A stretch of DNA of 64,000 nt from an uncultured Veillonellaceae bacterium (GTDB lineage Bacteria > Bacillota > Negativicutes > JARBTT01). A program made the translations under genes and the position numbers. Shown in pieces: positions 3,810 to 59,640 of this stretch. How positions within the stretch are numbered: the stretch's first letter is position 1; every line of letters begins with the position of its first letter. Below the pieces are notes generated by a model that searched no databases, had not been told where the DNA came from, and worked only from the letters and a program-made list of their open reading frames with translations. The stretch spans positions 192,001 to 256,000 of the forward strand of contig CAWDTA010000005.1 of NCBI GenBank assembly GCA_963805085.1. Direction: 5' to 3'.

Positions 3810-3842
3810 AGTCATGGTTTTGTCATATAGTTCATGTAATAT
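3810..3842 (+). promoter_or_regulatory. OmpR/PhoB-type direct repeat plus -10
   Basis: AGTCAT-N5-TGTCAT-N10-TAATAT. Confidence 0.6.
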
Positions 3843-3910
3843 GAATCTATAATATAAATTTAGAAAGGATTATATTATAAGAGCATTAAAATATGAAGGT
3901 GGAGTATGTT

Positions 3911-4252
3911 ATGAAAAATTTAACTAAGAAAATAATGATATTTTCAATGGTAGGTATGATGCAAGTTGGGTTTGGCGCAGCCATATCGGAAGCCTCTCCG
4001 TTACATACTGAAGATTCGCATAGATTTATACAGTTTGATGATAGGCATGATGACGACCATTGGCGGCAACATGAGCACGATGAACGGTTACGTAAAGAAA
4101 ATGAACGATATCGGCACGAAATGGAGAGACGTCATCATGAGAGTAGATGGGCGTGGCACGAAAGACAGGAAAGAGAAAGACAACAACATGAAGATAACTT
4201 GCGTGAAATTGGAGCTCTATTAATTGGTATCGCAATTGGATCGCAGTCATAA
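3911..4252 (+). CDS. small secreted His/Glu/Arg-rich hypothetical protein
   Basis: GGTGGAG RBS before ATG 3911; signal peptide ending ISEA-S; charged His-rich core; hydrophobic Gly-rich C-tail. Confidence 0.8.
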   Translation: MKNLTKKIMIFSMVGMMQVGFGAAISEASPLHTEDSHRFIQFDDRHDDDHWRQHEHDERLRKENERYRHEMERRHHESRWAWHERQERERQQHEDNLREIGALLIGIAIGSQS

Positions 4253-4312
4253 AATATTGGCTAGAAATGCGATGGAAAATCTATAGAATACTATGAGAAT
4301 AAAGAAATGACG

Positions 4313-4350
4313 AAAGGTGCCTATCTCAAAATTTTGAGATAGGCACCTTT
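4313..4350. repeat. perfect 38-bp palindrome (probable bidirectional terminator)
   Basis: AAAGGTGCCTATCTCAAAA|TTTTGAGATAGGCACCTTT. Confidence 0.9.
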
Positions 4351-4477
4351 TACGTTATACCCTATTGGGTATGTGTGGTAGCGATTTTCTTTTTTTTATG
4401 GTAAACTTTAGTTGTAATATTTGGTTGTTTTTTACTATACTTAATTTATTCTAAATTATACTATAAGGACTGATACA

Positions 4478-5308
4478 ATGAAAGATCTTGGAATAGTAGG
4501 CTATCCAATCGGATACTCTATGTCACCACGTATGCAAAATGCAGCACTTAAAGCTTTAAGATTAGACTATACCTATATTGCGATGGCAGTAAAACCAGAG
4601 GATGTAAAAACGATTGTTATTGATTTAAAAGCGATGAAGTTTAGAGGATTTAATGTAACAATTCCACATAAAATCGCTATTATGAACTATCTTGATGAAA
4701 TCGATCAAAGTGCGAAAGTGATTGGTGCTGTAAATACTGTTGTTAATGATAATGGAAGAATGATAGGTTACAATACTGATTATCTAGGATTTGTAGCCCC
4801 TCTTAAAGAGATGAATTTCTCAATGGGAGATAAAAATGCAGTTGTACTAGGTGCGGGTGGTGCTGCAAGAGCGGTTCTTTGGGGGCTAATCAGTGAAAAA
4901 GTCAGCAATATAACCGTTGTAGGTCGAAATGTGGAGAAGCTTAATATTCTACGTGATCAGTTCAAGGAATATTTTGAAATTGAAATCATTGAGTGGAATG
5001 ATAATAAATATGCAGAGCGAAGCAAAACTGCAGATATTATCGTGAATGCTACGCCAATCGGTATGTATCCAAAGATTGATGCTTGTCCGCCAATAGATTG
5101 GACCTGCGTAAATAAAAATGCTTTAGTTTACGATTTGATTTATAATCCAAAATGTACGAAGTTTTTGGATCTGGCTGAACAAAACGGCAATCGAATTTTA
5201 AACGGTGAGAGCATGTTGGTAGAGCAAGGTGCTGTAGCATTTAAAATGTGGACTTCATATGATGCACCAATACAAGTGATGCATCATGCATTGGTAGATG
5301 TAAAATAA
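4478..5308 (+). CDS. aroE: shikimate dehydrogenase
   Basis: SMSP, GFNVTIPHK, GAVNT, GYNTD, GAGGAARA, DLIYNP, MLVEQG. Confidence 0.93.
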   Translation: MKDLGIVGYPIGYSMSPRMQNAALKALRLDYTYIAMAVKPEDVKTIVIDLKAMKFRGFNVTIPHKIAIMNYLDEIDQSAKVIGAVNTVVNDNGRMIGYNTDYLGFVAPLKEMNFSMGDKNAVVLGAGGAARAVLWGLISEKVSNITVVGRNVEKLNILRDQFKEYFEIEIIEWNDNKYAERSKTADIIVNATPIGMYPKIDACPPIDWTCVNKNALVYDLIYNPKCTKFLDLAEQNGNRILNGESMLVEQGAVAFKMWTSYDAPIQVMHHALVDVK

Positions 5309-5413
5309 GTGAAAAATATGGTGAAACGATGGTAGTTTGCAGGAAGATTAATGCTTTTATCGTAAGTAATGATTTAAAAATATTTTGCAAATATAAAGAT
5401 AGAGGGTGAAATA

Positions 5414-6043
5414 ATGGTTGGAATTCAACATTTTGAAGTATTTTTTCTAGCATGTGTAATATTAATCCTAACACCTGGGACGGATACAATTTATATTCTT
5501 AGTCGAAGTGCCTGGGGAAAAAAAACTGGAGTTTACTCCGTTTTAGGAACTAGTTCGGGAATTATTACTCATACAATTTTGGCAGCACTAGGTTTATCGG
5601 TTATTTTAGCAAAATCTGCAATGGCATTTATGATCGTCAAAGTTATTGGTGCCGTTTATTTAGTTTATCTAGGGGTAACAACGTTAATTTCTAAGGATAA
5701 GAAATTAATGTGCGTAGAAAAAAGCACTGCGCATTCTTCAAAAGAAACTTTCCTTCATGGATTTTTAAACAATCTTTTAAATCCTAAAGTAGCATTATTT
5801 TTCATTTCATTTTTGCCGCAGTTTATTGATTCAACGAATGCATATGGAATTTTTCCATTTATTATTCTAGGTATGACATTTTATATGATGAGTTTAATTT
5901 GGAGCTTTGTACTCGTTTTTATTTCAGCTTGGGTAACCGAGTATTTGAAAAAAGATATTACATCTTCTAAAATGATAAATAAATTGTGTGGAATATTATA
6001 TATAGGGTTTGGGTTAAAACTCCTGACTGCAGATAATAAATAA
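5414..6043 (+). CDS. LysE/RhtB-family exporter
   Basis: LTPGTD, GAVYLVYLG, NLLNPKVALFF...PQF. Confidence 0.92.
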   Translation: MVGIQHFEVFFLACVILILTPGTDTIYILSRSAWGKKTGVYSVLGTSSGIITHTILAALGLSVILAKSAMAFMIVKVIGAVYLVYLGVTTLISKDKKLMCVEKSTAHSSKETFLHGFLNNLLNPKVALFFISFLPQFIDSTNAYGIFPFIILGMTFYMMSLIWSFVLVFISAWVTEYLKKDITSSKMINKLCGILYIGFGLKLLTADNK

Positions 6044-6087
6044 TACTAGTTTTTACGAAATGGTATTAAAAATTAGCCTTATATAGT

Positions 6088-6132
6088 AAAAAGCTGTTAC
6101 CGATACAAAACAAGTATTGGTAACAGCTTTTT
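6088..6132. terminator. bidirectional terminator
   Basis: AAAAAGCTGTTACC / GGTAACAGCTTTTT between convergent genes. Confidence 0.8.
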
Positions 6133-6212
6133 ATTATCGCAACAAAATTAAGTTATTACATTGTAAATTTTGTATATTCATAGCAATTGTTTTTATCAAT
6201 ACGCTAAATATC

Positions 6213-7517
6213 TTACTTAATTGATTCCATAAATGCTAAGTACTGTTCCTTCGTCATTGTTGGCTGGTAGTTTTCTAGTATTTGCTCGGTTTGATTTGCA
6301 TCGTCATAGAGTAAATCGATGATGGTCATCGCCATACATTCTGCGGAGATGAGATAGGCCATTTCTGGGTCGGAAATTTTAAAATCACGTGTATGTACCG
6401 TACCTGTGACGCCACCCATCCACGGATGAATGATTGGCATTATGTGAGATAGGTCTCCCATGTCAGTGCTACCTGAGTTATGACCAAGATGCAAAGTGGA
6501 GTTTTCGCCTAAAATTTCAATCGCATTTGCTTCAAATAAATCTGTGATTTTATCGTTGTTCACAAGTGGTAAGAAGCCAGGCAGATCATTGATTTCTACC
6601 TCAGCACCGATGGCCATGGCACCACCTTTTAAGGCGCGGTTTACTTTTTCATTGGCATCTAGCATTGCGGTTACTGTTTTTGCTCTAACGTAACTTTCCA
6701 TGCGAATTTCGGCAGGAACCACATTTACTAGGTCGCCGCCTTTGGTGATGATGGGATGGAAACGCACATAATCTTCATCTTTGAAGGTTTCACGTTGAGC
6801 ATTGACAGCAGTGAGGGCAATAAGTGCGGCGTTCAACGCATTGATTCCTTCATGGGGTGCACCAGCAGCATGAGCTTCTTTACCGATGAATTTTATTAGC
6901 TTGCCGACAAAGCCATTGCTTGTACCGCCGATATCAATGAGACGTTTCGTTTCACCACTCATCGAGACATGCATCATCATTGCCATATCGACGTCATCAA
7001 ATGATCCAGTTCGAATAAGTTCTGCTTTGCCGCCAAAATATTTTAATTTACCTTGCTTACGTAAACGGTTGCGATATTCTAATTCTACATATTCTTCCGC
7101 AGGTACGGCAAAAGGGACAACATTACCATCTAGTTCATTGATTACTCCAGATTCTTTTAAACCAATTGCACACGCAACCATGGCAGCGATTTGTGCATTA
7201 TGCCCACAGGCATGTGCTGCACCAGTCGTCATATCCGCTAATGGATGGTCATGACAAACGATCGCATCTAGCTCGCCGAGAACGGCAATGGTACGGTTGG
7301 ATGACTTACCTTTTAATTTACCTTTTATACCGGTGATTGCATGATTAGCGGTATAGTCGATGTTATGTTTGGCAAAAATATCGGCAACTTTTTGGGCTGT
7401 CTTAAATTCTTTAAAGCCTAGCTCTGGTTCGCTGGCAATAGAATTCGCCAAGGCAAATATTTCATCTTTATGTGCATAAATTGCGTTGTGAATTTTTTGC
7501 TTTAATATTTCTTTCAA
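6213..7517 (-). CDS. M20D amidohydrolase (Acy1L2/AbgB-like)
   Basis: PELGFKE, ELDA, HACGHN, PAEE, AHA, GSTDMGD, H ligands. Confidence 0.9.
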   Translation of the reverse strand: MKEILKQKIHNAIYAHKDEIFALANSIASEPELGFKEFKTAQKVADIFAKHNIDYTANHAITGIKGKLKGKSSNRTIAVLGELDAIVCHDHPLADMTTGAAHACGHNAQIAAMVACAIGLKESGVINELDGNVVPFAVPAEEYVELEYRNRLRKQGKLKYFGGKAELIRTGSFDDVDMAMMMHVSMSGETKRLIDIGGTSNGFVGKLIKFIGKEAHAAGAPHEGINALNAALIALTAVNAQRETFKDEDYVRFHPIITKGGDLVNVVPAEIRMESYVRAKTVTAMLDANEKVNRALKGGAMAIGAEVEINDLPGFLPLVNNDKITDLFEANAIEILGENSTLHLGHNSGSTDMGDLSHIMPIIHPWMGGVTGTVHTRDFKISDPEMAYLISAECMAMTIIDLLYDDANQTEQILENYQPTMTKEQYLAFMESIK

Positions 7518-7731
7518 ATGAACACACTCCTAAATTATAGATTGCTTTATTCAAGCTGGAATAGTTAAAATATTGCATGGTCACAATGTTTTTTAACCTT
7601 GTTTTTATTATAGCAGGATAAAAAAGATTGTGTGTATCATATGATAGTACATATTTGATTTAAAATGGCGGAAAATGTCGATTATTGTTATATTAATAGA
7701 ACAATACGTTGTTTTTTAATGAAATTATTCT

Positions 7732-7760
7732 TTGACAGTGTAAAAACAATATTATATACT
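7732..7760 (+). promoter_or_regulatory. sigma-A promoter
   Basis: TTGACA-17bp-TATACT. Confidence 0.8.
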
Positions 7761-7919
7761 TTAATAATCATTACTAATACAATTGTTTTTTTGTAAAAGA
7801 ATTAAAAGCAAGGATTAAAAAAAACTTGGTATAAGTGTAATGAGTTAGACAGTGAAGTCTTCGTCATGCGTAACGTGCGAGGACTTTTTGTATTTTTATA
7901 GTAAGGAGAGAAAATGTAA

Positions 7920-8732
7920 ATGAGTTTATTGACGAATTGGAAAATCCATGTAATTGCGCTTGTTTTAGTAATCATTTCAGAAATGATTGGGATGAAGAAA
8001 ATACCAGTAGGACCAGGTGTGCTATTATTTTTACCAATGCTTTATGCTATGATCCTTGGTGGTTTTATTAGTTGGCCTAAGATGAAGGTGATTACGACTG
8101 GTCAGATGAAACATGCTACAGCCGTGCTTAGTTTATTAACGCTATTATTAGTAACAAAATTAGGCGTGGTCATTGGACCATCACTAGCAAAGCTTGCTGA
8201 AGCTGGGTTTGCATTATCAATTCAAGAATTGGGACATTTCTTTGGGACTGTTGTTCTTGGCTTGCCAATTGCAATTGCTTTAGGCTTGGGACGTGAATCT
8301 GTTGGGGCGACTTTTTCGATTGATCGGGAACCCAATATTGCAATTATCGCCGAAAAATATGGCCTTGATTCTGCGGAAGGCCGTGGGGTTATGGCAGTTT
8401 ATATTTGTGGTACTGTATTTGGTGCGATTTGGGTAGGTCTTATCGCTGGTTTCTTGGCAGCACTCCAAATTTTCCATCCTTATGCATTGGCAATGGGGTC
8501 TGGTGTTGGTTCTGGTAGTATGATGGCAGCGGCCACTGGTGCTATTGTTGCAGTATTTCCCGATCGTAAAGATGAAATTTTAATGTATGCGGGGGCAAGT
8601 AACTTACTTACAACGATGGTTGGTATTTATTTCTGTTTGTTTGTTTCTTTGCCGATTACAAATTATTTATATAAAGTACTTACACCAATACTTGCTCCTA
8701 AAAGAGTGAGAGATGGAGGTATTAGCAAATGA
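7920..8732 (+). CDS. DUF3100-family membrane protein (putative transporter subunit)
   Basis: Polytopic; QELGH, GATFSIDREP, ALAMGSGVGSGSMMAA. Confidence 0.8.
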   Translation: MSLLTNWKIHVIALVLVIISEMIGMKKIPVGPGVLLFLPMLYAMILGGFISWPKMKVITTGQMKHATAVLSLLTLLLVTKLGVVIGPSLAKLAEAGFALSIQELGHFFGTVVLGLPIAIALGLGRESVGATFSIDREPNIAIIAEKYGLDSAEGRGVMAVYICGTVFGAIWVGLIAGFLAALQIFHPYALAMGSGVGSGSMMAAATGAIVAVFPDRKDEILMYAGASNLLTTMVGIYFCLFVSLPITNYLYKVLTPILAPKRVRDGGISK

Positions 8733-9175
8733 ATTGGATAGAAACTATCGCCGTATTTGTTGTTGCAGGAATCTTGGCCATTGCAGCAGCAATTGTTGGT
8801 TTTAAAATTGCTGTTACAGAGGCTATCATTGGTAGTGCAATTTTAGTTTTGATTACGTTAGTTGGTATTTTAGTGGCGCGCATTATGCCAGGAAATTTGC
8901 CGATGGTGTTCTGGGTGTCGATTGTTGCGATATTATCCACTACTTCGATTTCACCTTTTGCTGCGACGGTTACGCAATATACAGCAAAAATTGATTTCTT
9001 GGCAATTTGTACTGTGGTCTTAGCTTACGCGGGGTTAACCGTAGGTAAGGATTTGGCCATGTTTAAAAAAATGTCGTGGCGAATTATCGTTGTTGCACTA
9101 GCCGTTTATACGGGTACATTCCTCTGTGCGACATTAGTTGCAGAAATTATGCTTCATTTAGAAGGTATTATTTAA
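8729..9175 (+). CDS. small membrane protein, partner of DUF3100 protein
   Basis: ATGA overlap with upstream gene; about 5 TM segments; LAYAGLTVGKDL. Confidence 0.8.
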   Translation: MNWIETIAVFVVAGILAIAAAIVGFKIAVTEAIIGSAILVLITLVGILVARIMPGNLPMVFWVSIVAILSTTSISPFAATVTQYTAKIDFLAICTVVLAYAGLTVGKDLAMFKKMSWRIIVVALAVYTGTFLCATLVAEIMLHLEGII

Positions 9176-9197
9176 ATCTCAATAAAAATATAGTTCG

Positions 9198-9249
9198 AAA
9201 AAGCAGTAAGGCATCGTTATGGAAAATGATGGTGCCTTACTGCTTTTTT
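9198..9249 (+). terminator. intrinsic terminator
   Basis: AAAAAGCAGTAAGGCATC / GGTGCCTTACTGCTTTTTT. Confidence 0.85.
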
Positions 9250-9281
9250 GTATAAGTTTTTATTGCTAGGCACATATTAAT

Positions 9282-9335
9282 TTAACAATTCCTTAACATT
9301 GTCTTAACACTAAAACACTGATCCTGCGGTAGAAT
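9282..9335 (+). promoter_or_regulatory. Pho box (PhoP-type) and -10 of pstS
   Basis: TTAACA at 9282, 9293, 9304 (11-bp period), matching B. subtilis TT(A/T/C)ACA; TAGAAT at 9330. Confidence 0.8.
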
Positions 9336-9380
9336 GAAAGACATAGAAAAGATTTAAATATTTTAGGAGGTTCATAAAGA

Positions 9381-10250
9381 ATGAATTTATTTAAAAAATC
9401 TAAAGTTTTAGCAACTGCAGTAGCGATGATGTTGGGGGTAGCGATGATTGCTGGTTGCGGTGGTGGCGATAAGAAAGCGGAAGATACTACCAAGACAGCA
9501 GCTATAGAAGGAACTGTAAGTGCTTCTGGTTCCACGGCTTTATTACCGTTACTAAAACCAGCACAAGAAGAGTTTCAAAAGCTACATGATAAAGTTAATA
9601 TAAATATTGCTGGTGGCGGTTCGTTCACTGGGATGAACCAAGTAGCTGAAGGTTCCGTACAAGTTGGTAACTCCGATGTAAACTTACCAGATGATTATAA
9701 AGATAAAGGTTTAGTTGACCATAAAGTTGTAGTAGAGCCTTTCGTATTTATTGCTAATAAAGAGTTATCAGTAAATAATTTAACAGCAGCTCAAGTAGTA
9801 GATATTATGACTGGAAAGGTTACGAATTGGAAAGAAGTTGGTGGACCTGACCAAGCAATCACGATTATTCATAGAGCAAAATCGTCTGGATCAAGAGCAA
9901 CGATTGCAGAAAAAGTATTAAAAGGTGCGGAATTTACTGATAAAGCAATTATTCAAGATTCTAATGGGGCAGTAAGAGCAGCCATTGCTAATACGCCAGG
10001 TGCAATTGGTTATGTTGATGCTCCATATGCAGATCAAACAGTAAAAACACTTGATTTTGATGGTGTAAAATATAGTCCAGAAGCAATCATCAGTGGTAAA
10101 TACACAGTTTGGTCATATGGTCATATGTACACTAAAGGTGAAGCAACTGGTGCAACAAAAGCATTTATTGACTATGTGATGAGCCCGGAATTCCAAAACA
10201 CTTATGTTGAAAAAGCTGGTTTCATTCCTGTAACAAAAATGTCTAAATAA
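9381..10250 (+). CDS. pstS: phosphate ABC transporter substrate-binding lipoprotein
   Basis: Lipobox IAGC; SGSTAL, GGGSFTG, RAKSSGSR. Confidence 0.93.
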   Translation: MNLFKKSKVLATAVAMMLGVAMIAGCGGGDKKAEDTTKTAAIEGTVSASGSTALLPLLKPAQEEFQKLHDKVNINIAGGGSFTGMNQVAEGSVQVGNSDVNLPDDYKDKGLVDHKVVVEPFVFIANKELSVNNLTAAQVVDIMTGKVTNWKEVGGPDQAITIIHRAKSSGSRATIAEKVLKGAEFTDKAIIQDSNGAVRAAIANTPGAIGYVDAPYADQTVKTLDFDGVKYSPEAIISGKYTVWSYGHMYTKGEATGATKAFIDYVMSPEFQNTYVEKAGFIPVTKMSK

Positions 10251-10268
10251 TTGATAGCTATTCCCTCA

Positions 10269-19787: not shown

Positions 19788-19945
19788 ATAAAAAAATGTT
19801 TATCATCTGATTGTGATGATAAACATTTTTTTATTGACTTAGTCTGACTTGGTATTGCTTAATGAATTTTTTTGAATCGTATTCTATTGGCTGGGGAAAA
19901 TGATAAAATATTACAGGATTAATTTTAATTTATTTTGTAATATTT

Positions 19946-19973
19946 TTGTCATAGGCTGCATTTGTGATATAAT
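19946..19973 (+). promoter_or_regulatory. sigma-A promoter of tilS-hpt
   Basis: TTGTCA-16bp-TATAAT with extended TG. Confidence 0.6.
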
Positions 19974-20011: not shown

Positions 20012-21410
20012 ATGTTAGAGAAAGTCAAATGTTATTGTGATCGAAATGGCTTGATCACAATAGGTGATACAATTTTAATTGCTTGTTCGGGTGGTCCTGA
20101 TTCGTTAGCATTGGTAGATATATTACTTAAATTACAAAAGGTGTATCAATTAAAGCTAGCGGTTGCACATTTTGATCATATGTTTCGTGGTGCAGAGTCA
20201 AAGTCTGATGCTGAATTTGTCGCGGCGTTCTGTCGGGAAAAGAATATCGCTTACTATCAAAAAACGTTTGATGTGCCTGCCTATATAAAAAAGACTGGTT
20301 TTTCACCAGAAGAAGCGGCACGCATTGTACGGTATGAGTTTTTGCGGAGCGTGGCAAAAAAAATAGGTGATGCAAAAATTGCTACAGGACATCATCAGGA
20401 CGATCAAGCAGAAACCGTATTAATTCATTTATTTCGTGGCGCAGGTAGTAGTGGAATTGGTGGAATTCGACCAGTAAGTCGTGGTATAATAAGACCGTTA
20501 TTGTCTGTAACGCGCCAAGAAATTGAAGAATATTGCGAAAATAATCATTTTTCACCGCGAATTGATCGCACAAATTACCAAACGGATTATTTAAGAAATC
20601 GTATTCGATTACAGTTATTGCCTGAATTGATAGAAAACTTTAATCCGGCAATGAAAACTGCACTTTGTAAAAGTGCAGAAATCATTGCGGCCGAGCATGA
20701 TTTTATTCGACAAAGCGTAGAGCGTATCTGGACAGATATTGTTTCTCATGAGGGAGAATCCATTGTTTTTCATAGAGAGAAGTTCAATCAGTTGCATATT
20801 TCACAAAAACGTGAGTTGTTTCGGATGGCAATTGAAAAAAAACAAGGGAATCTTAGAGGAATAAGTTTTAAGCATGTAGAAAAAATGATAGTATTGTCAG
20901 ATAAAGGTTCTGTTGGTACGCAAATCACGTTACCAGGAATTTTAATTTTTAAATGTAACTATCAGCAAATGACGCTTGCGGATTCACAAGCTGGCATAAA
21001 AAAACTTGATTCATTGTATGTGGTGTTAGCGCCTCAAGGTGATACGTATATTCCCGCATTAAAAGCGACAGTGCAAGTAGAATTGACCGATTCTTTTATA
21101 AAACATGCTGATCAAAATAGTCTATTCTTTGATTTTGATCAATTGGTACCACCATTATTTATAAGATATCGCCAAGCTGGCGAATCGTTTTCGTCCGAGT
21201 GGTATGGCGGGTAGTAAAAAGTTAAAAGATTTCTTTATTGATTATAAGCTGGAACGGCAAAAACGTGATATTGTGCCACTACTTTGTGATCAGCAGGGAA
21301 TTCTTTGGGTGATTGGGTATCGTCAAAGTGAATACGGGAAAGCCTCGGAAAAAACAAAAAAGTGTTTGCAAGTTTCAATAAGGAAAGATGAAAAGTCAAA
21401 AGGAGTATAG
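20012..21410 (+). CDS. tilS: tRNA(Ile)-lysidine synthetase, split by a +1 frameshift near 21183
   Basis: SGGPDS PP-loop, [14 protein letters not shown] in 20012..21214; C-terminal [10 protein letters not shown] in 21204..21410; deleting one A at 21183-21184 fuses them. Confidence 0.9.
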
Positions 21411-27500: not shown

Positions 27501-27575
27501 AAAAGATACACATAGAAAAAAATACCTCGTAAGTGAAACAATCACTTACGAGGTATTCTTCTATGTGTATCTTTT
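27501..27575. terminator. 75-bp long-stem inverted repeat between convergent genes
   Basis: AAAAGATACACATAGAA..AATACCTCGTAAGTGA / TCACTTACGAGGTATT.TTCTATGTGTATCTTTT. Confidence 0.85.
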
Positions 27576-28351
27576 TATTGAGGAGTTGGTTCATTGTTAG
27601 GAGCCATTTGGGTCATATTGCCGTCTACTCGGCAATGCTTAAATTCTAGACCGTCACCATGATGACCATGATTTTTCCAAGGAAGACATTTTCTTACAGA
27701 ATCTTGGTATTGGTTGTAATCTTCATCGCTTATACCAAGTGCAGTAGCGACATCTGACCAACGATTGTTGATTTTTTTCATATTGAGTATTTCATCAGTG
27801 GTTTTATCGGTGTGCTTTGATAGTGTAACGGCCATGGCAGTATCACGTGGATGGTAGCCTTGAGATAAGAAAGAGTTTATTACATCTGAATTAACTCCAA
27901 GAGTAGTTGCCATTTTCTTACTCATCATAGTTTGCAATACAGTGTGAATTTTTTCTTTGGTTACACCAAAGGATTCGCCAACGTCTTTCCAATCATTTGT
28001 CATTGTTTTAGCATTTAAAATATCGCTGATTGGTTTTTCACTTGCATAAGCAATGAGGGCAGCGTTATGTAAATCATGCATTTTCCAGCCTTGCTTATTA
28101 TAATCTAGAATCACTTGTTTATCGATACCAAAAGAGTCTTGAATGTTTTGTGCCATGACTTCAGGATTGAAATTAGGTCTTTGATATTGCTCGTGGTGTT
28201 GAACTTGCTGTGTTGCAGCAATAGCTACTGACTGTGGCATCTGGGTTATGCCAATGCCTGTTACAATGAAAGCGCCAGCAAGTGCTAAAACAATAGCTTT
28301 TTTCGCTAGAACCTTGGATTTGAATGATTGTAATTGATTTTCTAAGTTCAT
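27575..28351 (-). CDS. secreted hypothetical protein with a two-fold internal helical repeat
   Basis: GGAGG RBS before ATG 28351; signal peptide; two ~70-aa repeats; HGHHG near C-terminus. Confidence 0.8.
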   Translation of the reverse strand: MNLENQLQSFKSKVLAKKAIVLALAGAFIVTGIGITQMPQSVAIAATQQVQHHEQYQRPNFNPEVMAQNIQDSFGIDKQVILDYNKQGWKMHDLHNAALIAYASEKPISDILNAKTMTNDWKDVGESFGVTKEKIHTVLQTMMSKKMATTLGVNSDVINSFLSQGYHPRDTAMAVTLSKHTDKTTDEILNMKKINNRWSDVATALGISDEDYNQYQDSVRKCLPWKNHGHHGDGLEFKHCRVDGNMTQMAPNNEPTPQ

Positions 28352-28408: not shown

Positions 28409-28441
28409 AGTATAATAGGATTTTGTGACAGCAATATGACA
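28409..28441 (-). promoter_or_regulatory. OmpR/PhoB-type direct repeat plus -10
   Basis: Minus strand TGTCAT-N5-TGTCAC-N10-TATACT. Confidence 0.7.
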
Positions 28442-28457: not shown

Positions 28458-29918
28458 TTAACTCTTGGGCAAGGTTAGCAAAAAAGTTGTCTTCGTATAG
28501 GGAATACTTGTAACTGTAATTGTACCTGCCATACCTTCGACTAACTGTTGGGTAATCGCCAGCCCGAGTCCCGTTCCTCCTTCACTACGAGAGCGAGCTC
28601 TGTCTACGCGGTAGAAACGATCCCAAATGAAGGGCAAATGTTCGGCAGGAATACCTTCGCCGTGATCAATCACTGCAATTGTAATGGTATTCATATAGTC
28701 GACTAATTTTATTGTAATAATTGCATCCTTTAAAGAATGGCGAATCGCATTACTGATAAGATTTGTGAGGATTTGTTCAAGGCGATTGGGGTCGGTATGC
28801 ATTGTCTTGAGTTCTGGTGGGGAATCAATGATTAAAGAAAGATTTTTCGTGCGCAGTAAGGGCGTATATTTTTCCTTCATACTTGTAAAGAAGTCCAAAA
28901 GGTCAATGGTCTGATAGTGAAAACTAAGTTGTCCAGATTCAAGTTTTTCTAAATTCAAAAGTTCACTGATCAGATGATTCATATGGGTGGTTTCATCTAA
29001 AATGGTATTTAGGTAACGATCACGTTTTTCAGCAGTATTAGCAAGTCCGTCAAGTATCGTTTCTGTTAAGGCTTGGATTGCCGCAATTGGTGTTTTTAGT
29101 TCATGGGTAACAGTAGAAAAAAATTCTCGCCTATTTTTTTCAATGCTTTCTAGAGCATTTGCCATGGTATTGAAGGTTTGTCCCAATTTGCCGATTTCGT
29201 CAGTACCTCTAGCTGTTGTGCGACTAGCATAATTGCCATTGGCAAAAGATTGCGCGGCACTACTGATATTGCTGATTGGTTTGGTGAGATTGCGTGATAA
29301 GAAAAAGGCAAAAATCGCTGCCAATGCAAACGAAGCGATAATTGAATAAAACAGTAAATTCTGAATCGCATTTGCTGTTTTTGTAATTCCAAAAATTGGT
29401 GTGTATAAAAATAAAGCAGATTGGTTGGTTGGCGGAAATGGTATTGCTACAACGATGGAAGGATCATCTTCGTCTCGTGCTTTTCGTATCCATGATCTTG
29501 GTTCACCATTTAGTAAATCGTTAGCTATATTGATATTACCCATACGAGGAGATGCAATAGCTGAGTCAGGAGATCCATTCCTATGTTGTTCTTGATTTTT
29601 TTCTTTGTTTTTTTCAAAGCGACGATGCCAATTTGATGGTGCATTACCAATGATCGTATTTTCTTCGGTAACGATCCACATTTTAGCACCAGATAGTTCA
29701 CTAGTTATATCAAGCATTTGGGGAAGTCTGTTTTGCTGATCGAGCATGCTTTCTAAAATTTTGGTTGCGACAATCCCTTCACGAATCAACTCAGTACGTT
29801 TCGCTTCAATGAGATATTCCGTAACGAGATGGGATAATACAATGCCGATGCTAGCGGTAATAATCATAGTAATAATAATATGCGAAGTGAATATTTTGCC
29901 AAATAATGAACGTATCAT
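28458..29918 (-). CDS. HAMP-domain sensor histidine kinase
   Basis: HELKTP H-box, NLISNAIRH, DHGEGI, RFYRVD, GTGLGL. Confidence 0.95.
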   Translation of the reverse strand: MIRSLFGKIFTSHIIITMIITASIGIVLSHLVTEYLIEAKRTELIREGIVATKILESMLDQQNRLPQMLDITSELSGAKMWIVTEENTIIGNAPSNWHRRFEKNKEKNQEQHRNGSPDSAIASPRMGNINIANDLLNGEPRSWIRKARDEDDPSIVVAIPFPPTNQSALFLYTPIFGITKTANAIQNLLFYSIIASFALAAIFAFFLSRNLTKPISNISSAAQSFANGNYASRTTARGTDEIGKLGQTFNTMANALESIEKNRREFFSTVTHELKTPIAAIQALTETILDGLANTAEKRDRYLNTILDETTHMNHLISELLNLEKLESGQLSFHYQTIDLLDFFTSMKEKYTPLLRTKNLSLIIDSPPELKTMHTDPNRLEQILTNLISNAIRHSLKDAIITIKLVDYMNTITIAVIDHGEGIPAEHLPFIWDRFYRVDRARSRSEGGTGLGLAITQQLVEGMAGTITVTSIPYTKTTFLLTLPKS

Positions 29919-30592
29919 CTTGGGCTTACCTCAAAACGATAGCCAAACCCTCTAGTCGTATGAATGTATTGAAATTCTGAGATGTTTAGCTTTTGCCGTA
30001 ACCGCTTAATTGTTGCATCGACAGTTCGATCATCACCGTCAAAGTCGTAACCCCATACATTTGTTAGCAATTGCTCACGGGAAAATGTATTTTTGGGATT
30101 TCTAATGAAAAAGGTAAGCAATTCAAACTCTTTTGGTGATAAAGAAACTAGCTGTTCGTCTATTGTAATTGTTTTGTCCGTAATATTGACGATTAATCCT
30201 TCCACACTTATGGTAGGCGTAATTGTTGCTAATAACCCACTTCTTTTTAAGACCGCTTTCACTCTAGCCACCAATTCGCGAGGACTAAATGGTTTTGTAA
30301 TATAATCATCTGCTCCCAGAGAAAACCCGATAATTTTATCATTTTCAGCAGATTTTGCAGTTAGAAAGATTTTTGGCACATTGCGCTCAATTGACTGACA
30401 AATTTCGAGTCCAGAAATTTTTGGTAACATAATGTCGAGTAACAATAAATCTGGACGTTCTTCGCACTCGATTTCCATGGCTTCATCGCCATCTTTTGCA
30501 GTGAAAACAGTAAAGCCTTCTTTTTCTAAATACAGTGCAACAACTTCACGAATCGTTGCCTCGTCGTCGGCGATGAGAATTTTCATCGGCAT
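29915..30592 (-). CDS. OmpR/PhoB-family response regulator
   Basis: Receiver DD/D/K; wHTH RTVDATIKRLRQKL, RGFGY. Confidence 0.95.
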   Translation of the reverse strand: MPMKILIADDEATIREVVALYLEKEGFTVFTAKDGDEAMEIECEERPDLLLLDIMLPKISGLEICQSIERNVPKIFLTAKSAENDKIIGFSLGADDYITKPFSPRELVARVKAVLKRSGLLATITPTISVEGLIVNITDKTITIDEQLVSLSPKEFELLTFFIRNPKNTFSREQLLTNVWGYDFDGDDRTVDATIKRLRQKLNISEFQYIHTTRGFGYRFEVSPR

Positions 30593-54150: not shown

Positions 54151-54198
54151 ACTCGGGAGGCTCAGCCTTTCGAGTTTATTTATGTTCGTAGAATATTT

Positions 54199-56034
54199 TT
54201 ATTTATCAGAGCTATTACAAGTTGGTAAGAAGAATTTTATAAAAAAAGTGGTACCCCCTGAGGTGGAATCGATGGTAATCGTGGCATTATTTTTGCTGGC
54301 AATATTATAACAAATAGAAAGTCCTAAACCGGTACCGTTATCTTTGGTAGTAAAAAATGGTGTGCCGATTTTTTCTCGTATTTCATCAGGAATACCAGGG
54401 CCTTCATCTTTGATGGCTAATAAGAGGCTTTCAGGCGTAGTATGGTGGGTAGAAATCGTTATTTTTCCACCACGTTTCATTGCTTCTAAGCCATTTTTAA
54501 CGATATTTAAAATCAGTTGTCGAATCTCTTTACCATCTAGTAATAAATCAGGAATTTCATGCAAATCAACATCAATAAAGTTATTGCTTGTAATCGCATT
54601 GGTTTGCAATAAAGGTAGTATTTGTCTAATGATAGTATTTAAATTGACGGATTCTATTTGACTTCTTTTATTTTTTGCAAGTGATAAATACTCTGAAATG
54701 ATTAAATTCGCACGATCTAGTTCTTCAATCATCAATTCAAAATAAGATTGATAGGTTTTCATTTCATTTTTATTACTAAGCATTTGCAAAAAGCCACGAA
54801 CAGAGGTCATTGGATTGCGAATTTCATGTCCTACACCAGCAGCGAGTTCGCTGGCAATATTGAGTCGTTCTAGTCGATCAATTTCATTTGCTAGATCATG
54901 TACTTCACTGATATCATTGATCGTAAAAATAATCGCTGGTGTACCTTTATAATCAATATTACGAGCTGATAATAAACCAATGCGTTGGGATGGAGTTAAA
55001 GCTGTAAAATTAAAATTCATTTCTATATTTCTAACAATATTGTTATTTTCTAATCTTCTCAAGATACAATTGTGCTGATCTGGTTTTGTATCAAGTGTTA
55101 AGTCTAACCAAATTTTATCATAAATATGGTCATGCGATAACCCCGTTGCAATACAAAAGCTTTTATTTGCTTCAATGATTTCCCCAGCTCTATTCGTGAT
55201 GAATGTTATAATGGGTAATTGATCAAACGTAGTTTCACTTTCATCATTGGTTAATAAAAGTTTTTTGAAGATGTTCTTTTCTTGGATAATATCTGTAATG
55301 GAAACTAAGGTTTGCTTACTATGTGGGATGAGAGAAATGGTGATATAGAGATTCTTTTGGATACCTTTGGCCGTTTTCACGTGAATTGTATGATAATTAG
55401 GAGCACTATCAGGATCAAATTGCTTTTGGTTTTGCAGATGAATAAAGTAGCGATAAGATCTTTTGGATATTCGTCCTAAGTAGTCCTTTTTACCTTCATA
55501 ATCTTCTCGATTAATATCGAATAATTTTTCGCAACTTCTATTTAGTGAAACAATCGACATATTTTCACCAAAAATAACCATTGCGGTACTGCTATAATAA
55601 AATGCATCATAGTAAAGCTTAGGTAAGTCAGGTAATATAGGTACGGCTATGTTCTGTGATACTCGTTTGATCTTTATAATTGTATTGCTATTTTCTTGGT
55701 TTAAATCTTCCTGGGAAAACTTTACTTCAAAAGTAACGACAGAGTCGTTCAGTATTATTTTTTTTGTAAAAGTAATGGAAATATAATGCGATTGACGAAA
55801 GTTAGATAGCTCATTCATTAACCAATCTGGTAGATGAAATTTTTTCAGATTGATTTCTTTCGTAAATTTTAATTTTTTAAATAATTGCTCTCCCGCTTTA
55901 TTAATGGTTAGAATACAGTTTTTATAGTCAACTACAAAAACAGTAGCAGGTAAATTATCAACAAATTCGATATAATCATCATTATGGTTTGTAGATGTAA
56001 TATCAAGGGCTGTCTTAATGGAACGTTTGTTCAT
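54199..56034 (-). CDS. orphan cytoplasmic multi-PAS histidine kinase (sporulation kinase-like)
   Basis: ELAAGVGHEIRNPMTSVRGFLQ, PFFTTK, GTGLGL; no TM; no adjacent regulator. Confidence 0.88.
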   Translation of the reverse strand: MNKRSIKTALDITSTNHNDDYIEFVDNLPATVFVVDYKNCILTINKAGEQLFKKLKFTKEINLKKFHLPDWLMNELSNFRQSHYISITFTKKIILNDSVVTFEVKFSQEDLNQENSNTIIKIKRVSQNIAVPILPDLPKLYYDAFYYSSTAMVIFGENMSIVSLNRSCEKLFDINREDYEGKKDYLGRISKRSYRYFIHLQNQKQFDPDSAPNYHTIHVKTAKGIQKNLYITISLIPHSKQTLVSITDIIQEKNIFKKLLLTNDESETTFDQLPIITFITNRAGEIIEANKSFCIATGLSHDHIYDKIWLDLTLDTKPDQHNCILRRLENNNIVRNIEMNFNFTALTPSQRIGLLSARNIDYKGTPAIIFTINDISEVHDLANEIDRLERLNIASELAAGVGHEIRNPMTSVRGFLQMLSNKNEMKTYQSYFELMIEELDRANLIISEYLSLAKNKRSQIESVNLNTIIRQILPLLQTNAITSNNFIDVDLHEIPDLLLDGKEIRQLILNIVKNGLEAMKRGGKITISTHHTTPESLLLAIKDEGPGIPDEIREKIGTPFFTTKDNGTGLGLSICYNIASKNNATITIDSTSGGTTFFIKFFLPTCNSSDK

Positions 56035-56306
56035 AAAGATATCTCCTAAACTGTTTTTTGGTAAAATTTATTTTATAGATATTATATACAACACATACCA
56101 ATAAATACCTTTAATAATGGTAAAAATGGTAAAAAAATTTTCGCATATTAAATAGTGTAAGAATTTCCTCTATTATTCTATCAATAAAATTTATCATTCT
56201 AGTTTTTATTGAGAAATGTTGTTCATAAGAAGGGGAATTGATCAATAAAAGAGAATTTTATAATAGTTAATCTATGATGAAGTTTATTTAGGCAAAGGGG
56301 ATATTT

Positions 56307-56972
56307 ATGCAAGATTTTACAAAATATAATACGATATTTTTTGATTTAGATGGTACGTTGTTCGATTCTGCGCTAGGGATTATTCGTTGTCTTCAGTATT
56401 CATTAGAAAAGCTTAATATTGTGGAAACTGAAGGAGAGAAGCTACGCCATTATATCGGCCCTTCACTAACAGAAACTTATACAAAAATTTACGGTATGAG
56501 TGATGAGGAGGCCGTGCAAGCGACTGAGTTTTATCGCGAGCGATTTGAACGTGAGGGAATCAAGGAAAATGTAATGTTTGAAGGGGTCGATCATTTATTA
56601 GCGGGGTTGAAAGCACAGAAAAAAACAATGGTTCTCGCAACGGCAAAACCGACGGAGCACGCCAAAAAGATTTTAGAGTATTATCAGATTGATCATTATT
56701 TTACAGTGATTGCTGGCAGTAATTTTGATGGCACGCGGGAACATAAAGGCGAAGTGATCGAATTTGCTTTGTCCCAACTAGAAAATCCTGACGTTAAAAA
56801 TATTATTATGGTTGGTGATCGTCAGCATGATATTTTAGGGGCGAAAGAAAATGATCTTGCAGTTATTGGGGTAGGGTATGGGTATGGAACGTTAGAAGAG
56901 TTAACGGAAGCTAAACCGGATAAAATAGTTACTTCGGTGGAGGAACTTAGCAATCTATTATTAGGAAAATAA
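56307..56972 (+). CDS. HAD-IA hydrolase (phosphoglycolate phosphatase/nucleotidase-like)
   Basis: FDLDGTL, ATAKP, MVGDRQHDILGA. Confidence 0.9.
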   Translation: MQDFTKYNTIFFDLDGTLFDSALGIIRCLQYSLEKLNIVETEGEKLRHYIGPSLTETYTKIYGMSDEEAVQATEFYRERFEREGIKENVMFEGVDHLLAGLKAQKKTMVLATAKPTEHAKKILEYYQIDHYFTVIAGSNFDGTREHKGEVIEFALSQLENPDVKNIIMVGDRQHDILGAKENDLAVIGVGYGYGTLEELTEAKPDKIVTSVEELSNLLLGK

Positions 56973-57124
56973 TCAGTATTTTATAGTCTAAATGATAAAC
57001 AATGCGTTTATTATTTAGACTATTTTTTACATAAGGAAAATAAAAATATGGTTACCTTTTTGAAAAATGCTGAATAGAATGAAAGAAAAAGGAAGCGGAA
57101 AAAATAAATAGTAGAGGGATCGGT

Positions 57125-58516
57125 ATGATAAGACAAAGTTTTGCGAAAAAACTTCGGCAAATGGTAGTGGGTGTAGACCGGCGCATACCAATACTGAATG
57201 GCGAATTGGTCACAGCAATCAATTTTGACAATGCCGCAACAACACCACCGTTTATCTCTGTTATGAGTGAGATTAATGAATTTGTTTCATGGTATTCCTC
57301 AGTGCATCGAGGAATGGGCTACAAGTCGACGGTGTCTTCAGACATTTACGAAAATGGTAGAGCGTTGATTAAAAAATTTGTTGGTGCAGATGATCATAAA
57401 GATACGTTGATTTATACAAAGACGACGACAGAAGCAATTAATATTTTTGCGAATGCTTTCTGGTATGAGCACCGAAAGGCAATGATTCTTAGTACAGAAA
57501 TGGAACATTTGGCGAACGATTTACCGTGGCGTTATAAATTTGCCATGGACTATGTAAAGATTGATCAAGTTGGCAGATTGGATCTGGTCGATTTAGAAAA
57601 GAAATTAATACAATACAAAGGCAAAGTCAAGCTGGTAAGTGTGACCGGTGCATCCAATGTAACTGGCTATATCAATCCGATTTATGATATTGCAAAGCTT
57701 GCGCATAGCTATGGTGCGGAAATATTAGTAGATGGTGCTCAATTGGTACCACATCGGGCGGTAGACATGAAGCCACATGAACGGGAGGAGCATATTGACT
57801 ATTTGGTATTTTCAGCTCATAAAATGTATGCACCTTTTGGTATTGGAGTGCTTATTGGCAAGAGTAGGACTTTTAAGAAAAACACACCTTATTTAAAAGG
57901 TGGAGGAGCAGTAGAACTCGTTACTGATACTTTTGTAGATTGGGATGCTGCGCCTTATAAAGATGAAGCTGGTACACCAAATGTGATCGGTGTTGCGGCA
58001 CTGTTAAAAGCGATTACTACTTTAAATAAGCTTGATATGCAGCGAGTCCATATCTATGAGCAAGAAGTGATAAATTATATCATTGACGGGCTTAGAGCTG
58101 TTAAAAATATTAAATTGTTTGGCTGTCCTAAAAAACAAGGTGATAAAGTCAGCATTATTTCTTTTATTTTGCCCAATATTGAGCATCGGATGATTGCAAA
58201 AATATTATCTTATGAATTTGGTATTGCTGTCCGCAGTGGTTTATTTTGCGCCCACCCTTATGTACAGAAGTTGCTAGGTTTGTCAAGTGAAGAGATTCAA
58301 TACTACAGAGAAAATGACAATGTCCCTTTTCCAGGAATCGTTCGAGTGAGCCTTGGAGTTTATAACAATTATGAAGAAGCGGATGTCTTTCTTCGTAGTG
58401 TGCATGATATCGCGAATAATGTTACTGGTTATATTGAAAAATATAGTAAGATAAAAGAGTTTCCCCCATATCCCAAGTCAGGTATATTTAACAATAATCG
58501 TCACTATTTACCATAA
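57125..58516 (+). CDS. class V PLP enzyme, SufS/selenocysteine lyase-like
   Basis: FDNAATT, EHLAN, DGAQ, SAHKMYAP, RSGLFCAHP. Confidence 0.85.
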   Translation: MIRQSFAKKLRQMVVGVDRRIPILNGELVTAINFDNAATTPPFISVMSEINEFVSWYSSVHRGMGYKSTVSSDIYENGRALIKKFVGADDHKDTLIYTKTTTEAINIFANAFWYEHRKAMILSTEMEHLANDLPWRYKFAMDYVKIDQVGRLDLVDLEKKLIQYKGKVKLVSVTGASNVTGYINPIYDIAKLAHSYGAEILVDGAQLVPHRAVDMKPHEREEHIDYLVFSAHKMYAPFGIGVLIGKSRTFKKNTPYLKGGGAVELVTDTFVDWDAAPYKDEAGTPNVIGVAALLKAITTLNKLDMQRVHIYEQEVINYIIDGLRAVKNIKLFGCPKKQGDKVSIISFILPNIEHRMIAKILSYEFGIAVRSGLFCAHPYVQKLLGLSSEEIQYYRENDNVPFPGIVRVSLGVYNNYEEADVFLRSVHDIANNVTGYIEKYSKIKEFPPYPKSGIFNNNRHYLP

Positions 58517-58674
58517 TAGGAGCTATAAGAGAAGGCGTTTTCTCTTGTAGCTCTTATTTTATATTAATTTTATATTAATTTATTAAATTTTGTAGAAGTT
58601 AGATAGGATTTTTGTCAATTAGTGCGAATACTATGAAAAGTACATTCGATTTTAAGATAATAATTAGGAGGTCT

Positions 58675-59046
58675 ATGGTGTTGCAAGGAATAAGGGGAGC
58701 TATTACTGTAACAGAAAATAACAAAGAAATTATTTTTCTCGCAGTACAAGAGTTGTTAAAGGAATTAGTGACCAAGAATAACTTAGATATTAAAGATATT
58801 GGGGCGGCTATTTTTAGTGCCACACCCGATTTAAATGCGGCATTTCCAGCAGCTGCAGCCAGAAAAATTGGCTGGGAATTAGTCCCATTATTTGGAACGC
58901 AAGAGCTGGATGTTGAAAATGGGTTAGATAAGTGCGTACGTGTACTTTTATTGGTAAATACAGAAAAACGACAAAATGAAATTGTCCATGTATATTTAGG
59001 CGAATCCAATTGCCTACGCCCTGATTTAGCCCAAAAGATATTGTAA
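58675..59046 (+). CDS. aroH: chorismate mutase, AroH class
   Basis: GIRGAITV, FSATPDLNAAFPAAAAR, HVYLG, LRPD; AGGAGG RBS. Confidence 0.93.
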   Translation: MVLQGIRGAITVTENNKEIIFLAVQELLKELVTKNNLDIKDIGAAIFSATPDLNAAFPAAAARKIGWELVPLFGTQELDVENGLDKCVRVLLLVNTEKRQNEIVHVYLGESNCLRPDLAQKIL

Positions 59047-59093
59047 TCTACTGAAATACAAAATAATAATATGAATAAAAGGGGTTAGCTATA

Positions 59094-59489
59094 ATGAAAA
59101 AAGTAGTTCATACTGACAATGCACCAAAAGCAATTGGTCCATACTCGCAAGCGATTAAAGCAAATGGTTTCTTATTCATCTCAGGACAAATTCCAGTAAA
59201 TCCGCAGACTGGTGAAATCGTGGCAGGTGGTATCGAAGCGCAAACAGCACAATCCTTGGAAAATTTAAAAGCAATCCTAGCTGAAACTGGCGCTACGTTA
59301 AATGATGTTGTTAAAACTGGTGTTTTTCTAGCTGACATGAGCGATTTTGTAGCGATGAACACAGTATATGCAAAATACTTTATAAGCGAAGCACCTGCCC
59401 GTGCTTGTGTACAAGTTGCAAAATTGCCGAAAGATGCCTTAGTTGAAATTGAATTAATTGCAATTTGTAACGATAAGTACACCTATTAA
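59094..59489 (+). CDS. ridA: RidA-family enamine/imine deaminase
   Basis: [32 protein letters not shown]. Confidence 0.93.
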
Positions 59490-59503
59490 GAAATAGGGAT
59501 AAA

Positions 59504-59549
59504 TAAACCCTAGTTGCATGTGAGTTATTATAATGCAACTAGGGTTTTT
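59504..59549 (+). terminator. intrinsic terminator
   Basis: AAACCCTAGTTGCAT / ATGCAACTAGGGTTT + TT. Confidence 0.85.
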
Positions 59550-59607
59550 ACGTATATCCTAAGTAAAGTTGGTTGATTTATCTAGAGTTTCTAGGAAGAT
59601 AAGTTTT

Positions 59608-59640
59608 TGTCATGGAATTGTCACATTGATATAGTATGGT
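59608..59640 (+). promoter_or_regulatory. OmpR/PhoB-type direct repeat plus -10
   Basis: TGTCAT-N5-TGTCAC-N10-TATGGT. Confidence 0.65.

Follow-up and report, generated by a model that had tools for sequence, protein, structure and literature searches.

A predicted PhoB-type promoter box and its candidate envelope-directed regulon in Negativicutes

The promoter boxes and the sensor pair

We analyzed a stretch of 64,000 nucleotides (referred to throughout as the window) from an uncultured Veillonellaceae bacterium, which corresponds to C5:192001-256000 in a genome of 4.21 Mb with 37% G+C. In this window, three distant promoters carry the same direct repeat at the same distance from a -10-like hexamer, an arrangement we refer to as the box, and one of them lies directly behind the genes of a two-component system. 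A preliminary description of this DNA, made from its letters, had reported three such loci with their hexamers and exact spacing. A scan of the window for the pattern WGTCAT-N5-TGTCAY-N10-TANNNT returned exactly three matches, at the same positions and with the same hexamers, and none of 100 dinucleotide shuffles of the window held a match. The boxes and the genes associated with them are as follows.

3810..3842, plus strand: box 1, AGTCAT-N5-TGTCATA, with the -10 hexamer TAATAT at 3837-3842; the promoters of orthologs are boxed in six genomes
3911..4252, plus strand: gene for a small exported protein rich in His, Arg and Glu (113 amino acids; part of P0001), its start taken from the ribosome-binding site and orthologs
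27575..28351, minus strand: gene for an exported all-helical repeat protein (258 amino acids; P0002 family) with a His-rich tail
28409..28441, minus strand: box 2, TGTCAT-N5-TGTCACA, with the -10 hexamer TATACT at 28409-28414; it starts 17 nucleotides past the kinase stop codon
28458..29918, minus strand: gene for a sensor histidine kinase (486 amino acids; P0004) with two transmembrane segments, a periplasmic domain of about 150 amino acids, HAMP, HisKA and HATPase, and no PAS
29915..30592, minus strand: gene for an OmpR/PhoB-family response regulator (225 amino acids; P0003), the proposed box-binding protein
59608..59640, plus strand: box 3, TGTCAT-N5-TGTCACA, with the -10 hexamer TATGGT at 59635-59640
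59738..60997, plus strand: gene for an RND periplasmic adaptor (MFP; 419 amino acids), which is preceded by the box in five genomes
60994..64000, plus strand: gene for an HAE1-like RND permease (1036 amino acids); the full gene ends 104 bases past the window

The whole-genome scan used a pattern relaxed to WGTCAY-N5-TGTCAY-N10-TANNNT, in which either C or T may close the first hexamer. It returned six matches against a mononucleotide expectation of 0.15, the reversed pattern returned none across the genome, and none of ten third-order Markov genomes held any match to the relaxed pattern. The scan of genome and relatives, which the preliminary description had proposed as its check, thus places the motif well over background. 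All six sites are intergenic, are oriented toward the downstream gene, and precede genes for exported or membrane proteins. The three sites outside the window are as follows.

C1:223528, plus strand: genome site 4, before a gene for a 24-amino-acid hydrophobic peptide
C4:230675, minus strand: genome site 5, before a gene for an 81-amino-acid DUF4405 membrane protein
C5:4695, minus strand: genome site 6, before a gene for a 184-amino-acid signal-peptide protein

The direct repeat by itself is not enriched in the genome, with eight copies at N5 versus 0 to 7 at other spacings. Because six of those eight N5 copies carry TANNNT at exactly N10, the signal is the repeat combined with the -10 hexamer and not the repeat alone. 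Chance and promoter duplication were considered as sources of the six sites and are ruled out by their unrelated flanks and by the retention of the box before orthologous genes across families. Two boxes with one mismatch were also seen. The first (TTTCATAATCTTGTCATA-N10-TATATT, at C4:407584-407601 on the minus strand, locus L197) lies 139 nucleotides before a gene for a 654-amino-acid PMT_2/YkcB_C membrane glycosyltransferase, which may be a seventh target and would act in envelope glycosylation. The second (TGTAATATTTTTGTCATA, at 19936-19953 of the window) lies before a PP-loop (TilS-like) gene at 20012-21214 and falls outside the shared architecture, since its TATAAT is 15 nucleotides away and not 10.

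To describe the operator, we aligned the 35 sites that lie before recurrent target families (given below) and considered the positions left free in the search. The base after the second hexamer is A in 35/35 sites, the base after the first hexamer is A in 25, and the two bases preceding the second hexamer are T in 30 and 26. These conserved search-free positions therefore give an operator of 18 bp, TGTCAYA-N4-TGTCAYA, which as predicted here, about 10 bp above the -10 hexamer, is letter for letter the Escherichia coli pho box. PhoB sites defined by chromatin immunoprecipitation at pstS and phoA are given as TGTCATAAAACTGTCATA and TGTCATAAAGTTGTCACG (PMC10294691). In the published description of PhoB boxes, an A/T linker joins the direct repeats, which lie 10 bp above a TAN3T -10 hexamer (PMC1906773). 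The preliminary description had drawn a likeness to the pho box from the layout, that is, from repeats of 11-bp period in place of the -35 element and about 10 bp above the -10; that layout stands, and the identity in sequence had been overlooked.

No -35-like hexamer (at least 4/6 matches) lies 16 to 18 nucleotides from the N10 hexamer at any of 40 sites of the recurrent families, and a promoter scan found no canonical -35/-10 pair at boxes 1 and 2 (for box 1, on that strand). From its sequence, then, the layout reads as that of an activator-dependent class II promoter of the PhoB type. At box 3, the architecture that had been described for the pump promoter is present, and what had been overlooked is a canonical promoter overlapping it: TTGTCA (59607), a spacer of 17, and TATAGT (59630-59635), with TG before the -10 and 10/12 matches.

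The regulator and kinase belong to the OmpR/PhoB two-component family, per Pfam matches to Response_reg (104.6 bits) and Trans_reg_C (96 bits) in the former and to HAMP, HisKA and HATPase_c in the latter. The HAMP domain (residues 206-257) runs straight into HisKA at residue 263, and Pfam finds no PAS domain. None of the NCBIfam equivalog models was passed by either protein. The best model for the regulator is PhoB (TIGR02154; 235.8 bits, cut-off 296.2), and its scores on YycF (216.7, cut-off 340), MtrA (207.4, cut-off 300), BaeR (165.7, cut-off 380) and CpxR (145.5, cut-off 341) are likewise below threshold. The kinase scores 276 bits on WalK (cut-off 725), 224.6 on MtrB (cut-off 450, with an alignment that spans the whole kinase), 202.7 and 180.2 on two BaeS models (cut-offs 500 and 603) and 156.7 on CpxA (cut-off 486).

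The genome encodes eight OmpR-family regulators. Compared with solved chains, the DNA-binding domain of the regulator ranks E. coli PhoB first at 70.9 bits, the next chain scoring 62.7. We set aside similarity of this domain as a means of assigning the box to a regulator, as it is non-discriminating: the corresponding domain of a regulator linked to the pst genes (see below) scores 79.2 bits against PhoB. The periplasmic domain of the kinase has the invariant residues G77, W81, G91, W97, I155 and P174 and conserves no His, Cys or Met. In this genus it also bears an insertion of about 24 amino acids (NKEKNQEQHRNGSPDS.., encoded within 29500-29650 of the window, residues ~100-130), which is absent from the 12 orthologs of other genera that were aligned. 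A complex prediction for the periplasmic domain (residues 32-190) and the repeat protein (residues 58-228) gave a score of 0.00, which carries weight neither way. Part of the locus occurs in 18 sequence runs, all of them assembled contigs, and the lone RNA run covers 8% of words.

Distribution of the box and the regulator across genomes

The association between box and regulator was examined in 151 genomes of the class, with orthologs of the regulator taken at E<=1e-75 (62-98% identity); these genomes are related, and the counts are not independent. An ortholog is present in 46 of the 151 genomes, in 13 of 29 families. All 46 hold matches to the box, 312 in total, and the reversed pattern gave 14 matches over the entire set. 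Five families (f2, f16, f23, f25 and f6) are mixed with regard to the ortholog, and in these the ortholog-free genomes G024, G016, G036, G039, G144 and G074 have no match, the exception being G116 with two.

Within the first 30 relatives, the exact pattern lies right after the kinase gene in eight of the ten that bear the ortholog; G002 has a box with one mismatch at this position, and G013 has a convergent gene after the kinase in place of the box. Among the matches listed, the post-kinase box occurs in at least 18 relatives (these eight and ten more). We also fetched 80 named loci by way of the repeat protein, of which 16 hold the regulator-kinase pair (62-98% identity). The order regulator, kinase, box, exported protein is found in 16/16 of these, with at most two mismatches in the box and TANNNT at N10. 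The module occurs in named genera such as Pelosinus, Propionispira, Propionispora, Sporomusa and Lucifera, and some of these holders are cultured. At about 55 of the 80 loci, from Selenomonas, Mitsuokella, Anaerovibrio and Megamonas (L140-L196), a homolog of the repeat protein at about 30% identity has no such pair upstream, and the best match to the box has four or more mismatches in nearly all (three in L186 and two in L196). The repeat-protein homologs thus persist in Selenomonadaceae without sensor pair or box, and so the protein would have a role independent of the circuit. That the regulator encoded at 29915-30592 governs the boxes, as had been proposed, is supported at the level of sequence by the tracking of its orthologs by the motif (46/46 genomes) and by the post-kinase position in 16/16 named loci.

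Two groups of matches in genomes lacking the ortholog were noted. An identical match, TGTCATATTTTTGTCATAGAATTTTGTTAAACT, occurs in five genomes of one genus (G017, G058, G095, G107 and G147; locus L100) before a gene for a protein of more than 950 amino acids with weak AsmA/DUF748 similarity; it may be used by another factor, or be a chance match retained by descent. In G005 (L097-L099) there are three near-identical matches (TGTCATTATAYTGTCATYGG..), of which one precedes an FMN reductase-like gene; they resemble an operator used by some other regulator.

Target genes and their products

Across 16 genomes, targets were surveyed at all 78 sites by clustering the first open reading frame (ORF) downstream of each. 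For seven of the sites no ORF could be picked; another eight, the post-kinase sites among them, fall within a long open frame or at its end. The recurrent families are as follows; at the other sites, the downstream ORF was unmatched at any other site.

His/Arg/Glu-rich small protein: 10 sites in 6 genomes
Post-kinase repeat protein: 10 sites in 9 genomes
Exported protein with the motif AWSP..GYYIWHDD (AWSP family): 7 sites in 7 genomes
Small outer-membrane-protein (OMP)-like protein of about 180 amino acids, with a signal peptide and weak OMP_b-brl similarity: 6 sites in 5 genomes
RND adaptor (MFP): 5 sites in 5 genomes (G000, G001, G004, G010 and G019)
HtrA (Trypsin_2 and PDZ): 2 sites in 2 genomes (G010 and G013)
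MarR: 2 sites in 2 genomes
DUF4405: 2 sites in 2 genomes of the same genus

The three targets named in the preliminary description (the His-rich protein, the post-kinase repeat protein and the pump) all fall among the five commonest recurrent families in relatives. Its gene assignments were also borne out: the exported protein rich in His, the exported repeat protein that directly follows the kinase, the operon of MFP and RND genes, and the TTAACA repeats of pstS. From their N-termini, the products described next are read as exported.

The His-rich protein, for which the mechanical ORF starts at 3893, contains 11 His, 14 Arg and 14 Glu in its 113 amino acids. Its conserved, signal-like N-terminus ends in IEASP; it also has a charged helix (ERHEREM..RR.HE...W.ERQ), and its tail is short and hydrophobic. 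Its AlphaFold2 model is one long helix with a pLDDT of 61.9, too poor for a fold search. Neither this protein (P0001) nor the repeat protein (P0002) matched any Pfam or NCBIfam family, LTXXQ/Spy included. The repeat protein has two repeats of about 75 amino acids each, with a tail that is His-rich in most orthologs, and its AlphaFold2 model has an all-helical core with a pLDDT above 90 over residues 61-222. A comparison of this fold with the PDB gave no match at E<=0.001, and designed helical toroids and TFIIB-like cyclin folds appeared at a TM-score of 0.2 only. In the ESM Atlas, the repeat protein retrieved only unnamed Bacillota clusters and the AWSP protein nothing usable. Conserved His motifs are present in the AWSP family, and DUF4405 likewise has conserved His.

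An Asp-Asp pair in transmembrane segment 4 is the signature of HAE1 pumps. The permease, which had been described as HAE1-type, carries this pair (GILVDDSIVVLENI, at residue 398 in transmembrane segment 4) and no DFG..DGA motif, matches ACR_tran with 786 bits and has an MFP partner. It scores 710 bits on the NCBIfam multidrug RND model (cut-off 1250, with 1002 of its 1036 amino acids scanned) versus 386 on CusA/CzcA, and its best equivalog-type model is MdtC. The permease gene is followed by a terminator, with no outer-membrane factor gene after it.

In the two large genomes G027 and G068 (L031-L036, L041 and others), the box heads a multi-copy promoter block (..TGTCATATTTTTCCTGTATTAT). Copies of this block precede small ORFs rich in Ser, Gly and Asp (MSYGNSDGSDG..) and genes for proteins of 60-85 amino acids, several within 70 kb, and they are read as an expanded, lineage-specific branch of the regulon. 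Long, perfect hairpins lie in the window at 4313-4350 (17 pairs), after the His-rich gene, and at 27521-27557 (16 pairs), between the convergent asparaginase II and repeat-protein genes; both are probably bidirectional terminators.

Interpretation and comparison with known systems

An OmpR/PhoB-family two-component regulon at this locus is well supported by comparative genomics. Our preferred interpretation, to which we assign a probability of roughly 0.68, is that all three sites serve as activator-dependent promoters in a single regulon under the two-component system at 28458-30592, which would mount an envelope-directed or toxic-compound response of the BaeSR/CpxAR type in Sporomusaceae-type Negativicutes. 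With its periplasmic domain of about 150 amino acids, the kinase would detect a cue from outside the cytoplasm and phosphorylate the regulator, a head-to-tail dimer of which would occupy the two TGTCAYA half-sites, 11 bp apart. These half-sites would stand in for the missing -35 element about 10 bp above the -10, and the bound dimer would recruit RNA polymerase as PhoB does at pho boxes. In this genome, the output would comprise the His/Arg/Glu-rich exported protein, the post-kinase helical repeat protein, a third exported family, the DUF4405 protein, the 24-amino-acid hydrophobic peptide and the HAE1-type MFP-RND pump, and in relatives also the HtrA protease and the small OMP-like protein. 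The post-kinase repeat protein may be a feedback partner. We infer the term envelope stress from gene content.

Several observations weigh against this interpretation. The 105 ortholog-free genomes hold 25 matches to the box, in 18 genomes with one to three each, and four genomes with the ortholog (G013, G050, G059 and G098) have no exact match on its contig. No box lies upstream of the regulator gene within four mismatches at any of 17 loci, and therefore the usual positive autoregulation is not seen. The htrA gene and the small OMP homolog of this genome, both of which were checked, have no box, a point the preliminary description had overlooked; in this genome, then, the envelope stress label is based on one pump and on proteins of uncharacterized function. 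A -10-like hexamer at N5 likewise occurs in the pump promoters of G004 and G019, and because of the canonical promoter that overlaps the pump box in the window, binding there could repress and not activate; the regulator might thus repress or modulate a basal promoter at box 3. The DNA-binding domain of the pst-linked regulator scores higher against PhoB than that of the proposed regulator (PhoB being at rank 6 in its list), and the many His residues of the products agree equally well with a metal cue and a folding cue.

The resemblance to the pho box calls for a comparison with the phosphate genes. These are found partly in the window and partly upstream of it, as follows.

9381-10250: pstS (PBP_like_2), with two permease genes next; TTAACA repeats at 9282, 9293 and 9304, and TAGAAT at 9330
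C5:184201-184905: gene for a second PhoB-like regulator (locus L111), 8 kb upstream of the window

The pstS promoter (9282-9335) has three TTAACA repeats of 11-bp period, with TAGAAT 20 nucleotides past the last repeat. A (T/G)TAACA triplet is also found at pstS of G004, G019, G010, G027 and G006, and the TGTCAY box is absent from the pstS promoters of all six genomes. The use of a TTAACA repeat at pstS, claimed in the preliminary description for this genome, is seen here and across all six. As judged from its sequence, this repeat is a Bacillus-PhoP-like box in a diderm Firmicute. The second PhoB-like regulator gene adjoins an SDR gene, pstB, phoU and a divergent gene for a PAS-type kinase of 592 amino acids. 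The phoU product scores 221 bits on TIGR02135, above the cut-off, and the kinase aligns over its full length to the WalK, PnpS and PhoR models. On the PhoB model, this pst-linked regulator scores 271.5 bits versus 235.8 for P0003, both below the cut-off of 296.2. The L111 genes are likely the true phosphate system, split from pstSCA about 17 kb off in the window. An ortholog of the pst-linked regulator is present in 23 of 31 genomes, 12 of which lack an ortholog of P0003. In those 12, the box counts are 0, 0, 1, 0, 0, 0, 0, 0, 1, 0, 2 and 0, that is, 4 matches versus 70 in the 11 genomes with both, and no phosphate-uptake or phosphatase family was recognizable among the recurrent target families. 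The separate pst-linked regulator, the TTAACA repeats in 6/6 genomes and the scarcity of boxes without a P0003 ortholog thus uphold the earlier claim that the TGTCAYA-box regulon, as predicted here, is probably not the phosphate regulon.

Nevertheless, one could take the boxes for pho boxes of the phosphate regulon, to which the PhoB/PhoP-type regulator encoded next to pstB and phoU binds, with the sensor pair of the window a bystander. The sequence and layout of the box, the higher PhoB similarity of the pst-linked DNA-binding domain and the fact that the best NCBIfam model of P0003 is itself PhoB would all fit. Against this stand the pstS promoters and the target list, the 4 matches in genomes with the pst-linked regulator only versus 70 in those with both, and the persistence of the box beside the other sensor pair in 16/16 loci, and we give this supposition the lowest probability of the explanations considered. 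It is also very unlikely, in our judgment, that the boxes are real but bound by another factor of the same taxonomic range, or that the regulator represses at most sites. All of the evidence linking regulator and box is one of association in a genome with eight OmpR-family regulators, and the pump has its overlapping canonical promoter; on the other hand, adjacency of the box to the kinase gene is conserved in many families, the box is lost wherever the pair is lost, and the lack of a usable -35 at all 40 sites argues for activation at most of them.

Somewhat less improbable, but still unlikely, is that the same regulon and regulator answer to Zn, Ni or Cu and that the products buffer metals in the periplasm, in the manner of ZraSR-ZraP or CusRS, instead of mounting a general response at the envelope or to toxic compounds. 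The His-rich nature of the products agrees with this (11 His in the 113 amino acids of the small protein, the tail of the repeat protein, the His motifs of AWSP and the His of DUF4405). However, the pump has the HAE1 Asp-Asp pair in transmembrane segment 4 without DFG..DGA and favors the multidrug RND model over CusA/CzcA, G, W, P and I make up the invariant residues of the periplasmic domain of the kinase, where His, Cys and Met are all unconserved, and the HtrA and OMP-like targets in relatives indicate protein quality control.

We therefore return to the envelope-directed regulon. To our knowledge, how the envelope is guarded in Negativicutes, which are Firmicutes with an outer membrane, is almost unknown, and we found no description of this regulon in the literature on Negativicutes two-component systems and envelope stress or on Pelosinus, supplementary files being outside the search. 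The box system is most likely a new envelope-protection circuit across many outer-membrane-bearing Firmicutes, and it would supply a concrete circuit of one sensor pair, one 18-bp operator and a short conserved list of targets, with predicted co-regulation of three unstudied exported protein families, HtrA and an RND pump. A further implication is that a pho box found by pattern search beyond Proteobacteria need not flag phosphate genes. A bolder proposal, which we offer tentatively and regard as doubtful, is that the system represents the first envelope stress response to be identifiable in diderm Firmicutes. In this view, a different sensor pair would have reused the PhoB code (TGTCAYA), the phosphate regulon having shifted to Bacillus-type boxes, and the core effectors would come from protein families to which nothing known is related: a tethered helix rich in His, Arg and Glu, a repeat protein of a new all-helical fold with CpxP-like feedback on the kinase, and AWSP.

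Among known systems, E. coli PhoB-PhoR is similar in its TGTCAYA half-site, 11-bp direct-repeat period, placement about 10 bp above a TAN3T -10 and lack of a -35, and in having a regulator of the same family, PhoB ranking first among solved structures for the DNA-binding domain of P0003. It differs in that P0003 falls below the PhoB equivalog cut-off (235.8 versus 296.2 bits), the kinase is HAMP-HisKA without PAS, no pst or pho targets are present, pstS has TTAACA, and another regulator lies by pstB and phoU.

The BaeSR regulon comprises spy and mdtABCD/acrD, and the BaeR site is different from the box here. Similar to BaeSR, which responds to antibiotics and toxic compounds (PMC6737893), the present system combines an OmpR-family pair with an HAE1-type RND pump, whose permease has MdtC as its best model, and a small exported protein. 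Unlike in BaeSR, the BaeR and BaeS models score far below cut-off, the exported proteins lack LTXXQ/Spy, and the pump is not in the operon of the sensor pair. The analogy to BaeSR-spy-mdtABC built from different parts, drawn in the preliminary description, accordingly holds: pump and small exported protein are present, and the BaeR/BaeS models are not reached. The CpxR site is of the GTAAA type, again unlike the box here. CpxAR, whose targets include cpxP, spy and degP (PMC6737893), is matched by the box-controlled gene for an exported protein beside the sensor pair, as cpxP, and by the HtrA/DegP target in two relatives. It differs in that CpxR and CpxA score below cut-off, the neighboring gene is downstream on the same strand and not divergent, and its product has no PDB fold match and is not of the CpxP/Spy family.

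In WalRK (YycFG) of Firmicutes and MtrAB of Actinobacteria, exported partner genes (yycHI and lpqB) follow the kinase, as they do here. Both families are close paralogs, with regulator scores of 216.7 bits on YycF and 207.4 on MtrA, and the half-site likewise begins with TGT and has an 11-bp period, the WalR site being given as TGT(A/T)A(A/T/C)-N5-TGT(A/T)A(A/T/C) (PMC5405149). Unlike in WalRK, the fourth base of the half-site is C in 35/35 sites (partly fixed by the search pattern) and not A/T; all WalRK and MtrAB-LpqB models score below cut-off, and cell-wall hydrolase genes were not seen among the recurrent target families. The CssRS system of Bacillus subtilis controls htrA/htrB in secretion stress. 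It is similar in being a Firmicute OmpR-family pair with an extracytoplasmic loop kinase, with HtrA boxed in G010 and G013; it differs in that P0003 scores 59.7 bits against the CssR DNA-binding domain (7cx5), below PhoB, the htrA gene of this genome is boxless, and the regulon is centered elsewhere. Because all of the equivalog models score below cut-off and the accessory proteins are of no known family, the system is a member of none of PhoB, BaeSR, CpxAR, WalRK or MtrAB. Judged by its predicted operator and targets, it is PhoB-like at the promoter and BaeSR/CpxAR-like in its output.

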